A DNA stretch of 32,000 nucleotides. Source: Gemmata obscuriglobus. GTDB taxonomy: Bacteria > Planctomycetota > Planctomycetia > Gemmatales > Gemmataceae. This document shows positions 26,712-32,000 of this stretch, in pieces. Below the pieces are notes generated by a model. It was not told the origin of the DNA. It saw nothing but the letters and a program-made list of their open reading frames with translations, and made no database searches. Where the stretch lies: the NCBI RefSeq assembly GCF_008065095.1, contig NZ_CP042911.1, positions 7,320,001-7,352,000 on the forward strand. Direction: 5' to 3'. The first letter of the stretch is position 1; each line of letters starts with the position of its first letter. The translations under genes were made by a program, and so were the position numbers.

Positions 26712-26718
26712 GTTCGGC
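26712..26718 (+). other. lone GTTCGGC core (attI-like junction candidate) preceding the first cassette ORF
   Basis: It has the same 7-mer and the same spacing to the next start codon (18 nt) as the right end of every repeat. The upstream 90 nt show no similarity to the repeat. Confidence 0.4.
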
Positions 26719-26736
26719 AACCCAGAGGGCGTCCGG

Positions 26737-27129
26737 GTGCGGCAGGTTGTGAGAACAGCAATTTCAGTCGTCGCGGTGGCCTTGGTCGGCTGCGGGGTCG
26801 GCGGCACGACGGTCGGCGTCATGTTCGCCCCGCCGCCCGGCCCGATCTCGCCCGGCGGCCGCGCCGAGACGCGCGTCACGGTCCGGTTCGGCGATGCCGG
26901 CGACTCGTGGGCCGGCCGTACCGTTAAGGTGTCCGTCCGGTCGCCGGCGGATGTAAAAGTCGAGCCGGCCGAGTCCGAGGTCGCGCTCGACGCCAAGGGG
27001 GCCGCGGTCGTCCGGGTGTACGTCACCCCAGATAAGGCGGCCCCCGCCGGACCGCGGACGCTGGCCATCACCGCTACCGGTTCGGGCACGGCGAGTACGA
27101 CCCTCAACGCGGATGTTACCGTCCGGTGA
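26737..27129 (+). CDS. cassette ORF 0: small lipoprotein
   Basis: GTG at 26737 lies 8 nt after AGAGGG. The lipobox signal is (M)RQVVRTAISVVAVALVGC. The rest is beta-rich (TRVTVRF...VKVSVRS...VVRVYVTP). An alternative GTG lies at 26749. The track start at 26653 would span the core site. Confidence 0.6.
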   Translation: MRQVVRTAISVVAVALVGCGVGGTTVGVMFAPPPGPISPGGRAETRVTVRFGDAGDSWAGRTVKVSVRSPADVKVEPAESEVALDAKGAAVVRVYVTPDKAAPAGPRTLAITATGSGTASTTLNADVTVR

Positions 27130-27138
27130 GGCGCAGAA

Positions 27139-27229
27139 GCCGAACCCGGCGCTGCACCTGACACCGCCATCGGCTGCGGTTGTGATGCTCACTTGTATCC
27201 TGGCGGTGCAGGTGAGCTCGTTGTTCGGC
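27139..27229 (+). repeat. attC-like repeat copy A (91 nt)
   Basis: GCCGAACCCGGCGCTGCACCTGACACCGCC...GGCGGTGCAGGTGAGCTCGTTGTTCGGC. It starts 10 nt after the stop at 27129. Confidence 0.75.
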
Positions 27230-27239
27230 CGCCGGAGAA

Positions 27240-27518
27240 CTACGTGCGCGGGACATCGCTCCGTGGTCGGTTCCACAGAATAACCTTGGTCACGCGATCC
27301 TGACGGTAGATCACTTGGAGCCGTGGGGTCAAATAGGAAGCGGTGACCACTGGGTCGAGCCGATTGCCCAATAGCTCGTACCCATTCTGAGGGGGGCCAA
27401 GCCGCAACTCGACCTCCGCCCGGGTCATGCCGGCTGCGACGGGCGGGTACTGCGGTGGTAGTTTCTGTTCGGCTGCCGAGAGGAGCAGGTATCCGGCCAG
27501 TGCGATCACGAACCCCAT
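27240..27518 (-). CDS. cassette ORF 1 (inverted): small anchored protein with a BamE/SmpA_OmlA-like motif
   Basis: GGGAGGG, 5 nt, then ATG on the minus strand. MGFVIALAGYLLLSAA is the anchor. GMTRAEVELRLGPP resembles the BamE/SmpA signature. Confidence 0.55.
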   Translation of the reverse strand: MGFVIALAGYLLLSAAEQKLPPQYPPVAAGMTRAEVELRLGPPQNGYELLGNRLDPVVTASYLTPRLQVIYRQDRVTKVILWNRPRSDVPRT

Positions 27519-27596
27519 CAGTGCCCTCCCGGTTGGGTGACACCGATCCGATATCAGGCTCGCAGGACTGGTGCAACCTCACACGCAGTCGGAGAG

Positions 27597-27688
27597 GCCG
27601 CCCCAGGCGCTGTAAGCTGACACCGCACGCTGAGCTGTGACGCATCGCTCATCGTGTGATGGCGGCGTAGGTGAGCTGTAAGTTCGGC
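27597..27688 (+). repeat. attC-like repeat copy B (92 nt, degenerate left core GCCGCCC)
   Basis: GCCGCCCCAGGCGCTGTAAGCTGACACCGCACGCTGAGCTGTGACGCATCGCTCATCGTGTGATGGCGGCGTAGGTGAGCTGTAAGTTCGGC. Confidence 0.7.
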
Positions 27689-27712
27689 CATGTACACTAG
27701 AAGAGGTTCCCG

Positions 27713-28324
27713 ATGCAGTACTCCTACGCCGCGACGCTCGCCTTGCTCGTCTCGGTCACCGCCTACGGACAGCCCCCGGCCCCGTCGCTCGCGCTCGACC
27801 CGGTGCCCTTCGACGACGTGTCCGAGTTGCTCCGCGTCCTCCGGCGATCCGGCCGGCTGACGCTACCCGAGGACGCCCCGAAGGGGCGAATCGTGGCCGA
27901 GTTCTACGCCGCCGGGAAGCTGGCTCGCGGCGAACTCGACACCGGCCTCGGGTACGACGCGACCCGCGACCCGCGGCCGAAGCGCGAGGTCCGCTTCGTC
28001 GCGCAGTTCGCTGACCTGGACTACCTGCCGCTCGGGGACGCCAAGAAGGGGCACGTCCGGATGCTGCTCAAGCTCCGGGTCGGGGACGACGTGTTGACGA
28101 CCTCCTCGACCCAGGACATTCCCAAAACGGTGTTCGACTACACCAAGGGGATCGGCGGCGGCGAGTTCCCGGCCAAGGCGGCGACCGCGGCCGAGGTGCC
28201 CCTCTTCTACCTCGTCGCCAACTCGAACCAGATCAAAGCCAGCAGCACCCCGAAGGAGGCCGTTGAGCTGCACCCGGATGCACAGGTCGCGATTTTCTAC
28301 TTCCGACGGCCGAGTGCGAAGTGA
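27713..28324 (+). CDS. cassette ORF 2: secreted hypothetical protein
   Basis: Signal peptide MQYSYAATLALLVSVTAYGQPP, 203 aa. The start lies 24 nt after the repeat, behind AGAAGAGG. Confidence 0.7.
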   Translation: MQYSYAATLALLVSVTAYGQPPAPSLALDPVPFDDVSELLRVLRRSGRLTLPEDAPKGRIVAEFYAAGKLARGELDTGLGYDATRDPRPKREVRFVAQFADLDYLPLGDAKKGHVRMLLKLRVGDDVLTTSSTQDIPKTVFDYTKGIGGGEFPAKAATAAEVPLFYLVANSNQIKASSTPKEAVELHPDAQVAIFYFRRPSAK

Positions 28325-28336
28325 CGCTGCGAGTTG

Positions 28337-30595: not shown

Positions 30596-30604
30596 CAAAG
30601 ATCA

Positions 30605-30695
30605 GCCGAACCCGGCACTACGCCTGACGCCGCCCGATATACTGGGACGCACCGCTCATCCGGGGGTGGCGGTGCCGGTGAGTTATTTGTTCAGC
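30605..30695 (+). repeat. attC-like repeat copy G (91 nt, right core GTTCAGC)
   Basis: GCCGAACCCGGCACTACGCCTGACGCCGCCCGATATACTGGGACGCACCGCTCATCCGGGGGTGGCGGTGCCGGTGAGTTATTTGTTCAGC. Confidence 0.7.
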
Positions 30696-30711
30696 GGCGG
30701 AGGGCCTCCGG

Positions 30712-31032
30712 GTGGGCAAGGTGGTGAGCGGCGTGTTGGTACTCGTCGGCGTCGCGCTGTTCGCACGCGGCGGGTTCGATGCCTGGCTGTTCCTGGTCAC
30801 CGAGGCGTGGGAGCGGCCGGACGTGGCCCGCGGGTTGGGCGGGGCCGCCGCCCTGGCGGTCGGCACCTACGGGCTGGTGCGGGGCGGCCGGGCCGAGGTC
30901 GCTGACGAACTGCGGCGGCGGAACGTCGCGCTGGAGTTGGAGGTGCTGGCCCTGTCCGCCGAGTTGGGCCGCCGTCCGCCGCCCACCGGAGTTGGGGCGG
31001 CTCCGGGCGCCGAACCCAGCAAGGGCACCTGA
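30712..31032 (+). CDS. cassette ORF 7: small membrane protein with a coiled-coil tail
   Basis: GTG at 30712 lies 7 nt after GGAGGG. Hydrophobic segments VVSGVLVLVGVALFA and LGGAAALAVGTYGLV are followed by ELRRRNVALELEVLALSAEL. The stop TGA is the TGA of the conserved CACCTGACAC box of repeat H. Confidence 0.55.
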   Translation: MGKVVSGVLVLVGVALFARGGFDAWLFLVTEAWERPDVARGLGGAAALAVGTYGLVRGGRAEVADELRRRNVALELEVLALSAELGRRPPPTGVGAAPGAEPSKGT

Positions 31033-31101
31033 CACCGCCGGCTGATTCGGGACGCACTGCTGACGGTATCGTGGCGGTGCAGGTAAACTTGATCGTTCGG
31101 C
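31009..31101 (+). repeat. attC-like repeat copy H (93 nt)
   Basis: GCCGAACCCAGCAAGGGCACCTGACACCGCCGGCTGATTCGGGACGCACTGCTGACGGTATCGTGGCGGTGCAGGTAAACTTGATCGTTCGGC. Confidence 0.75.
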
Positions 31102-31119
31102 GGCGGAGGCGGGGCGCGG

Positions 31120-31623
31120 ATGGTTGAAGCGGTGGGACGGGCGAGAGCGTTCGCGGTCGTCGCTCACGGTGAACAGCGGTATGGCGATCAGCCGTACTCC
31201 GTTCATCTCGATGCGGTCGCCGAGTTACTCGCGCCGTTCGGGGATGTAGCACAAGTCATCGGCTACCTGCACGATGTGGTCGAGGACACTGACGTGCCCC
31301 TTGATACAGTAAGGCAGGGATTCGGTGACCGCGTAGCCGCATGTGTGTCCTTGGTCACCGATGAGCCGGGAGCCAATCGACGAGAGCGAAAGGCGAAAAC
31401 CAACGCCAAGCTCTCGACGGTGTCAGGCGAAGAGTCGTTAGCTCTGGTCGTTAAAGCTGCCGACCGGTTGGCCAACCTTCGAGCGTCGGCCAGTAACGAT
31501 TCGGGCTCTAAGCTCGGCATGTACCGCCGTGAGCACCCGGCGTTTCGGGAGTCCGCATACCGGCCCGGGTTGTGCGATTCACTGTGGCGGGAGATGGATC
31601 GCATCTTGAGTGACGAGGCGTGA
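31120..31623 (+). CDS. cassette ORF 8: HD-domain protein, (p)ppGpp-hydrolase-like (RelA/SpoT hydrolase-domain family, small alarmone hydrolase type)
   Basis: AFAVVAHGEQRYGDQPYSVHLDAVAELL...VIGYLHDVVEDTDVPLDTVRQGFGDRVAACVSLVTD matches the H..Q.R...PY..H...V and LHD..EDT signature of HD_4/SpoT-type hydrolases. The start lies 18 nt after the repeat, behind GGCGGAGGCGGGG. Confidence 0.75.
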   Translation: MVEAVGRARAFAVVAHGEQRYGDQPYSVHLDAVAELLAPFGDVAQVIGYLHDVVEDTDVPLDTVRQGFGDRVAACVSLVTDEPGANRRERKAKTNAKLSTVSGEESLALVVKAADRLANLRASASNDSGSKLGMYRREHPAFRESAYRPGLCDSLWREMDRILSDEA

Positions 31624-31624
31624 C

Positions 31625-31721
31625 GCCGAACCGGTCCCTGCACCGGCCCCGGTCACGTAGTTTCTTTCCCATCGCTCAGCGGCTGGTTTCGATCACGCAG
31701 CAGGTGAGCGGTGAGTTCGGC
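31625..31721 (+). repeat. attC-like repeat copy I (97 nt, divergent interior)
   Basis: GCCGAACCGGTCCCTGCACCGGCCCCGGTCACG...CACGCAGCAGGTGAGCGGTGAGTTCGGC. Only the two cores and the CAGGTGAGC box are conserved. Confidence 0.6.
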
Positions 31722-31735
31722 TGCGAGGGTCCCCG

Positions 31736-32000
31736 ATGGTCCCGGAGCGCGCCTTCACCCGCTGGTGCATCGCCCTATCGTTGTTGTGGGTCTTCGCCAA
31801 CTGGCCCTCGACCTCGGGTCTGGGCGGGTTCTGGCTGCACGCCGGGTTTCCGTTTACATTTGCGTGGGGCGCCTTCGGCCGCTTTGAGCATTTCGATGTG
31901 CGCCTCTTGCTCGCGGACGTGCTGTTCGGGCTCCTGACGGTCGTTGGAATTGCTTGGCTGTGCGCCCGGTCGCGTGGGCATCGATCGCCGCCCGCCGAAC
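31736..32000 (+). CDS. cassette ORF 9: small membrane protein (stop not reached within the window)
   Basis: ATG at 31736 lies 6 nt after GAGGG. Own translation: MVPERAFTRWCIALSLLWVFANWPSTSGLGGFWLHAGFPFTFAWGAFGRFEHFDVRLLLADVLFGLLTVVGIAWLCARSRGHRSPPAE... The frame is open to the edge and runs into the next repeat. Confidence 0.55.
   Translation, partial: MVPERAFTRWCIALSLLWVFANWPSTSGLGGFWLHAGFPFTFAWGAFGRFEHFDVRLLLADVLFGLLTVVGIAWLCARSRGHRSPPAE
31994..32000 (+). repeat. start of a tenth attC-like repeat (only the left core GCCGAAC is inside the window)
   Basis: The window ends ...cgcccGCCGAAC, which matches the left end of the other copies. Confidence 0.5.

Follow-up and report, generated by a model that had tools for sequence, protein, structure and literature searches.

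A probable sedentary integron cassette array without its own integrase in the chromosome of Gemmata obscuriglobus

Sedentary chromosomal integrons and attC site clusters that lack an integrase (CALINs) are well described (Cury et al. 2016, PMC4889954), and integron integrases can in principle act in trans on CALIN cassettes (PMC4889954). Gemmata obscuriglobus is already among the catalogued cases: Table S3 of IntegronFinder 2.0 (Neron et al. 2022, PMC9024848) lists, for assembly GCF_003149495.1, four CALINs with 39, 47, 133 and 48 attC sites and one complete integron with 78, giving 345 attC sites over five elements. Here we describe a repeat-bearing region in a 32,000-nucleotide stretch of the chromosome of this species (assembly GCF_008065095.1, contig NZ_CP042911.1, positions 7,320,001 to 7,352,000; hereafter, the window). 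We conclude, with a probability of about 0.9, that the region is a sedentary integron cassette array without an integrase of its own, i.e. a CALIN. The evidence comes from the anatomy of the array, the structural conservation of its repeat, the association, in relatives, of the same repeat with integron integrases and the lack of an integrase at this locus.

A sequence-only reading of the window had proposed nine complete copies of an attC-like repeat, all in one orientation, and the beginning of a tenth. All nine were recovered on the + strand, at exactly the proposed coordinates, both by nhmmer, using a profile of the copies, and independently by an unfiltered covariance model in which 12 copies were combined with the proposed structure. 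Eight of the copies scored 77-100 bits and the divergent ninth 29 bits. The sites are as follows, with covariance model scores:

27139-27229, + strand: attC-type site 1; 81.4 bits; whole hairpin recovered, z = -4.8
27597-27688, + strand: attC-type site 2; 77.3 bits; R'' degenerate (GCCGCCC)
28337-28426, + strand: attC-type site 3; 76.8 bits; R'' degenerate (GCCGGAG)
29010-29100, + strand: attC-type site 4; 99.8 bits
29695-29788, + strand: attC-type site 5; 88.4 bits
30195-30281, + strand: attC-type site 6; 93.9 bits
30605-30695, + strand: attC-type site 7; 91.7 bits; R' is GTTCAGC
31009-31101, + strand: attC-type site 8; 85.5 bits; whole hairpin recovered
31625-31721, + strand: attC-type site 9; 29 bits, E 1.3e-4; R box intact, L box and centre divergent
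31994-32000, + strand: attC-type site 10, first 7 nt (GCCGAAC)

The heptamer at the end of the window is indeed the start of a tenth copy, which is complete at 10875-10962 (84.2 bits) of a second G. obscuriglobus record, CP025958.1 (GCA_003149495.1; locus L001). This locus spans window position 21120 to window-equivalent position 41623; it is identical to locus L002, so that the comparison within the species covers one strain. In L001 the array extends to 18 sites (window-equivalent 27139-37230, scores of 24-100 bits), the last of which, at 16023-16111 (window-equivalent 37142-37230), has lost its R' box. No further copy was found at window positions 1-26700 with the unfiltered covariance model (best other match, E 0.26), and a scan of the 13.5 kb after the array end also returned none. 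When the 5' half of the repeat was used as a pattern with up to three mismatches, seven occurrences were found, 0.08 being expected by chance, and six of the seven fall at six of the nine copies.

The structure of the repeat was analyzed at the level of the family. A 20-base pattern taken from the repeat's 5' half, scanned against a single genome of each species, revealed many loci in Gemmataceae, including Gemmata algarum, Gemmata sp. SMAG_U3706, Urbifossiella, Fimbriiglobus and Zavarzinella, and the covariance model identified 195 copies in 57 of the pattern-scan loci. In multi-copy loci the copies are always co-oriented and at cassette-like spacing. The family-wide statistics below refer to the best 150 of the 195 copies, from Gemmataceae and other Planctomycetota; their alignment was fitted to the covariance model and is therefore biased towards the proposed structure. 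The proposed pairs form in 95.2% of cells, compared to 30-42% when pairing partners are slid by 1-3 columns, and the covariation score is 0.238, compared to 0.01-0.04 in the slid controls. Compensatory cells number 240, against 69 +/- 6 in shuffled alignments, and none of 500 shuffles reached 240. In the inner (L) box, 94% of cells pair and compensatory changes occur at nine of its 13 pairs. The outer (R) box, GCCGAAC/GTTCGGC, is nearly invariant: it is kept in more than 90% of the copies and 97% of its cells pair.

The individual elements of the layout largely bear out what had been read from the letters alone. The R box GCCGAAC departs from the attC consensus RYYYAAC by one position (G for Y). 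It had been read as the outer inverted pair of an approximate consensus; it is perfect in six of the nine copies in the window and altered in copies 2, 3 and 7, and the crossover triplet is intact in R' of all nine (GTT) and in R'' of seven. In 149 of the 150 copies the extra A noted in the left arm of the L box is bulged; it belongs to the L'' arm and is nucleotide 23 counted from the R'' end. On the bottom (-) strand the bulge is a T carried by the arm opposite the AAC triplet. Descriptions of attC sites give this same geometry, with the bulge in L'' across from the bottom-strand AAC, as the mark of the recombined strand (PMC5027507). Here the - strand is the complement of the strand that encodes the open reading frames (ORFs), as in canonical cassettes. 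The spacers between the R and L boxes, CCGGCGC(T/G)G (9 nt) and AGCTnnTT (8 nt), are mutually non-complementary, as claimed. Spacers in attC sites of mobile integrons appear to be shorter than these. The central columns are poorly conserved, and the sites vary in length from 83 to 113 nt family-wide and from 83 to 97 nt in the array, in agreement with the variable centre that was proposed. The repeat thus has the attC layout: an R box with AAC/GTT, unpaired spacers, a structurally conserved L box, an extrahelical base on L'' and a variable centre.

In relatives, the same repeat is associated with integron integrases. By tblastn, full-length homologues of IntI1 (whose sequence served only as a probe) were found directly upstream of the repeat in four loci: L063 (Planctomycetota), L071 (Pirellulales), L014 (Gemmata sp.) and L016. 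The model TIGR02249, “integron integrase”, matches the proteins from L063 and L014 with 419.5 and 398.7 bits, respectively (cutoff 265), and the relatives' integrases are 51-54% identical to the IntI1 probe. In L014, L063 and L071 the integrase is oriented towards the cassettes, its stop codon being followed after ~60-210 nt by a GTTCGGC site; in L063 and L014 the repeat starts ~0.7-0.8 kb downstream of the integrase, past the GTTCGGC site located 60-150 nt after the gene, and L071 and L016 are arranged likewise. Gemmataceae integrases do not form a tight clade, and, among the matches listed, the identity of the Gemmata sp. integrase to those of proteobacterial integrons, for example in Methylomonas, reaches 72%. 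The integrase of L016 is 68% identical to that of Gemmata sp., with repeat and integrase features at 1050-1814 and 3381-3471; the contig was binned as Alcaligenaceae, reflecting either mis-binning or transfer between phyla.

Fragments of the integrase 3' end (last 30-105 residues) were also seen, in L051 (~1408-1606 and 4102-4281), L092 (~5369-5680), L083 (~448-618) and L069 (~2538-2633). With the exception of L083, these fragments (two in L051) are followed by an attI-like CTAAT.AC..GTTCGGC site and cassettes, and platforms with truncated integrases look common in metagenome-assembled genomes (MAGs) of Gemmataceae. Single copies of the repeat occur as well: a full-length one of 87.3 bits at L124 2729-2819, on a predicted viral contig in IMG/VR and the sole copy that a scan of viral contigs gave, and one of equal score at L035 2627-2717, in Gemmata sp. 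IIL30. The viral contig is probably a provirus call in the genome of Gemmata sp. IIL30.

By contrast with these relatives, the G. obscuriglobus array has no integrase next to it. No similarity to IntI was detected in the window or in L001 by tblastn with IntI1 and two planctomycete integrases (best E 0.1-0.3), and a six-frame hidden Markov model (HMM) search of 41.6 kb around the array with a profile of 63 integron integrases found neither an integrase nor a remnant (best E 2.8). In the same search, positive controls scored 487-550 bits and fragments of 60 residues 76-136 bits. The two approaches together cover 26 kb upstream and 4.4 kb downstream of the array. The adjacent intI gene that a complete integron would have is thus lacking, and only an attI-like site is present; with 18 attC-type sites and no integron integrase within the 4 kb clustering distance, the array is a CALIN by the IntegronFinder definition. 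This agrees with the sequence-only reading, which had offered a chromosomal cassette array or a CALIN on the basis of the attC architecture; the integrase linkage in relatives and the lack of an integrase here now add to it. The same reading placed the recombinase elsewhere, lost or unknown, and the complete integron that Table S3 lists, without coordinates, for this assembly supports a location elsewhere. No G. obscuriglobus integrase was found among the best 120 matches listed for the Gemmata sp. IntI (64-72% identity).

The left edge of the array is defined by two features:

26496-26711, + strand: conserved leader upstream of the first crossover site, with a GGGGC...GCCCC hairpin at ~26671-26687
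26696-26719, + strand: attI-like site CGCACTAAACACAG|GTTCGGCA at the left array end, with GTTCGGC at 26712-26718

The left-edge site shares CTAA(T/A).AC..GTTCGGC with sites located 60-220 nt after intI genes or their fragments in L014, L063, L071, L051, L092 and L069; the motif common to the integrase-linked sites is CTAAT.AC..GTTCGGC. Written as CACTAAACACAG|GTTCGGC, it also resembles attI1 of class 1 integrons, CCCTAAAACAAAG|TTA, a sequence that we confirmed in at least 5000 plasmids. The same left edge heads two G. algarum arrays, in one of which the leader (~215 nt) is matched as well, with ~80% identity (L042 6990-7152, likewise preceding an array). The cassettes of these arrays differ from the first onward and the flanking genes are unrelated, with no synteny detected between the flanks of the window array and those of the L042 array. 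It follows from a shared edge combined with differing cassettes and flanks that the array has at its head an attI-like entry site, which moves with the platform and not with the chromosome. No sigma-70-like promoter was found near the left end.

The cassettes follow the proposed organization. G-to-G unit lengths are 459, 738, 674, 688, 493, 414, 406 and 620 bp, within the range that had been estimated, and each unit holds one ORF, nine of the ten being on the + strand:

26737-27129, + strand: cassette 1 ORF, 130 aa; a called gene (L001 5618-6010); lipoprotein-type signal (LVGC)
27240-27518, - strand: cassette 2 ORF, 92 aa; sole reverse-oriented ORF; GC content at third codon positions 0.73
27713-28324, + strand: cassette 3 ORF, 203 aa; signal peptide-like N-terminus; no Pfam family
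28440-29003, + strand: cassette 4 ORF, 187 aa; common to Gemmata sp. SMAG_U3706
29118-29675, + strand: cassette 5 ORF, 185 aa; lipoprotein-type signal (LTAC)
29806-30153, + strand: cassette 6 ORF, 115 aa; three hydrophobic segments
30302-30595, + strand: cassette 7 ORF, 97 aa; membrane protein-like
30712-31032, + strand: cassette 8 ORF, 106 aa; stop 24 nt within the next site
31120-31623, + strand: cassette 9 ORF, 167 aa; HD-domain; Pfam HD_4, 40.4 bits (cutoff 27.2)
31736-32000, continuing to window-equivalent 32029, + strand: cassette 10 ORF, 97 aa; L001 10617-10910

The + strand ORFs start 13-24 nt past GTTCGGC behind GGAG/GAGG-type motifs, as had been described; that of cassette 1, for example, starts 18 nt past it, behind GAGGG. 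Their stops range from 41 nt before the next repeat to 36 nt within it. Apart from Shine-Dalgarno-like purine runs, no position-specific conserved leader was found downstream of R'. The ten products are mutually unrelated in blastp comparisons at 1e-3, again as claimed, and only one of them (HD_4) contains a Pfam family above the cutoff; the cassette 1 product has a weak Ig-like Pfam match under the cutoff.

One cassette is shared with another species. The cassette 4 ORF is 87% identical to L018 1920-2483 of Gemmata sp. SMAG_U3706, where its neighbours in the array are unrelated. Its dN/dS of 0.29 indicates purifying selection and hence a real gene. The similarity begins right after GTTCGG, matching the cassette model. 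Sequence comparison thus points to unit exchange of cassette 4, but without clean G|TT breakpoints on both sides.

Taken as an integron cassette array, the locus would operate as follows. The window holds the first 5.3 kb of a 10.5-kb array that starts at the attI-like site and comprises 18 cassettes, in each of which a small ORF has a ribosome-binding site of its own and precedes an attC-type site of 83-97 nt. The bottom (-) strand of each site is predicted to fold into a hairpin stemmed by the R and L boxes, with an unpaired central spacer of 8/9 nt and one T extruded from the arm that lies opposite the AAC triplet. The shape of this hairpin would be what an integron integrase recognizes; cleavage inside AAC, which is G|TT on the + strand, would then let single cassettes be excised or inserted. 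As no integrase lies beside the array, any recombination must act in trans, the enzyme being that of the complete integron which has been reported from another part of this chromosome. Bottom-strand folding, cutting at G|TT and present-day activity of the array are inferred, and part of it may be frozen, since several sites look decayed.

Several observations weigh against this reading. The family has one clear extrahelical base, whereas canonical sites have two or three; the asymmetry between the 9-nt and 8-nt spacers may be a stand-in for a second one. The bottom strand is not significantly more stable than the top strand (difference -0.22 +/- 1.9 kcal/mol, p = 0.16, n = 146), and with a top-strand GC skew of +0.03 the sites do not follow the purine trend of the bottom strand. 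Both bottom-strand stability and purine-richness are statistical trends in mobile integrons and not defining requirements. The 12 aligned copies of this array show no covariation, 85% of their cells pair as opposed to 95% family-wide, and the substitutions among them mostly break pairs; the lack of covariation is explained by the copies being close paralogues, and covariation is seen only with the 150 copies of other genomes. In minimum-free-energy folds, which are significant for some of the copies only, the proposed hairpin is clean only in copies 1 and 8 and partial in copies 4 and 6, and RNAalifold on the nine window copies returned another inner structure with a positive (unfavourable) covariation energy. 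Searches of Rfam at the gathering threshold and at E <= 1 gave no match, which is uninformative, as Rfam holds no attC family. There are also signs of decay: R'' is degenerate in two of the nine window sites and R' is mutated in one, and the last site of the array is without R'. Table S3 gives no coordinates and has no row with 18 attC sites, so that the array could be matched to none of its rows. Finally, the variable part of the attC site downstream of cassette 4 differs between the window and L018, which places the right breakpoint off the next G|TT. The window site at 29010-29100 and the 20 nt that open the next cassette are instead similar to another L018 site (29010-29121 vs L018 2489-2580 and 5087-5201). 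This pattern suggests that attC copies were exchanged at points other than G|TT, and homologous recombination between near-identical 5' halves of the sites could be its source.

The decay just mentioned is also what would be expected if the sites were true attC descendants that are no longer recombined, a stranded and decaying old integron whose ORFs are now ordinary chromosomal genes. We regard such a fossil as a serious possibility while leaning against it. It would account for the lack of an integrase or remnant within 26 kb upstream and 4.4 kb downstream, for the R-box mutations in three of the nine window sites, the one highly divergent site and the terminal site without R', for substitutions that break pairs instead of compensating, and for scores of 24-100 bits in sites of this array where the best G. 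algarum and MAG copies reach 100-113 bits. However, R boxes are still perfect in six of the nine window sites and the GTT triplet survives in all nine, the attI-like site is retained, and the listing of a complete integron implies an integrase in the same chromosome, from which it could in principle serve the cassettes in trans (PMC4889954). An opposite extension of the preferred reading, in which the integrase-less Gemmata arrays are working secondary platforms, each with its own attI-like site and leader (as at this locus and in two G. algarum arrays) and served in trans by a single integrase, so that the chromosome carries one multi-platform integron of several hundred cassettes at five loci, is in our judgement rather unlikely.

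The remaining explanations fare much worse. The imperfect palindrome, its high copy number in several Gemmataceae genomes and its occasional occurrence as a single copy (L035, L061, L124) recall intergenic palindromic repeats of the repetitive extragenic palindromic (REP), bacterial interspersed mosaic element (BIME) or miniature inverted-repeat transposable element (MITE) types, which might gather between small genes; this is largely refuted by the lack of any copy in the intergenic regions of the first 26.7 kb of the window, the single orientation and cassette-like spacing in every multi-copy locus, the position of the repeat directly downstream of integron integrases in four loci, the strand-asymmetric invariant bulge and the R box with its AAC/GTT triplet. 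A mainly RNA-level role of the repeat is also very improbable; in it, hairpins between cistrons would terminate transcription, stabilize the message or control translation of the adjacent ORFs, and descent from integrons would be incidental. The location of the sites 12-24 nt before start codons and just after stop codons and the equal folding of the top strand would suit that role, but T-run terminators are missing (the sole terminator-like match, at 27187-27217, is at chance level), no Rfam family is matched, and the invariant AAC/GTT R box and the linkage to integrases fit DNA recombination and not a role as RNA. A clustered regularly interspaced short palindromic repeat (CRISPR) array was considered separately and ruled out, since the units are 360-1055 bp long and contain ORFs.

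Upstream of the array are purF and a glycosyltransferase gene followed by an ORF-poor stretch of 3 kb, in which a perfect 35-nt direct repeat, GGCGGAAACAACTCGCCTATCAGGCTGATGGCACC, occurs at 23982-24016 and 24054-24088 (zero expected by chance). The 13.5-kb downstream flank contains ordinary larger genes encoding amine oxidase, VapBC, DinB, FG-GAP, LRR, HEAT and kinase proteins. The VapBC toxin-antitoxin pair is on the opposite strand at L001 19245-19954 (window-equivalent 40364-41073) and is followed by a DinB_2 gene; these genes lie 3-4 kb past the last attC site and have no flanking sites of the family. Further away, at window positions 2495-3800 within the long ORF 840-4112, repeats with a period of 48 nt encode Cys-rich units of the VCKPVCET type (families D1-D6), and the ORF at 5164-8409 has Pro/Gly-rich tandem repeats of 18 nt (7569-7631) and 21 nt (8137-8240). 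No tRNA genes were found in the window.

The element is of a known, catalogued class, and the same genome is already listed with four CALINs and a complete integron; the discovery value is therefore little and the added value descriptive. New points are the definition of a Gemmataceae attC family (R box GCCGAAC/GTTCGGC, a 13-bp L box and one invariant extrahelical base), the co-directional integrase in relatives and the attI-like head on an integrase-less array. If the attI-like site is functional, integrase-less arrays could still capture cassettes, which bears on what CALINs are.

How the array compares with known systems can be stated as follows. Like a CALIN (PMC4889954, PMC9024848), it combines cassette ORFs with at least two co-oriented attC-type sites, intI is absent within both 4 kb and 10 kb, and, as in 95% of published CALINs (PMC4889954), there is no intI pseudogene near it; unlike the CALIN definition, it keeps an attI-like site and a conserved ~215-nt leader at its left end. 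With the Vibrio cholerae superintegron, whose attC sites are known as Vibrio cholerae repeats (VCRs), it shares the length and common orientation of the array, the close similarity of its attC sites, small ORFs whose function is mostly unknown and many of which encode secreted or membrane proteins, and VapBC within 4 kb of the array end, yet here without flanking attC-type sites. It differs in that the Gemmata sites are shorter (83-97 nt, and 83-113 nt family-wide, vs ~130 nt) and GC-rich, have 9/8-nt spacers and one evident extrahelical base as opposed to three, and lack an adjacent integrase; in the related complete elements the integrase points towards the cassettes and not away from them. 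Class 1 integrons have the same crossover triplet, AAC/GTT, and the same layout of R and L boxes in their attI1 and attC sites, whereas the Gemmata array is chromosomal and without resistance genes, and its attC sites are homogeneous and not diverse. In integrons of the Treponema denticola type the integrase is reportedly co-directional with the cassettes, an arrangement that the Gemmata family matches in the relatives L014, L063 and L071 only, where intI reads towards the attI-like site and the cassettes.

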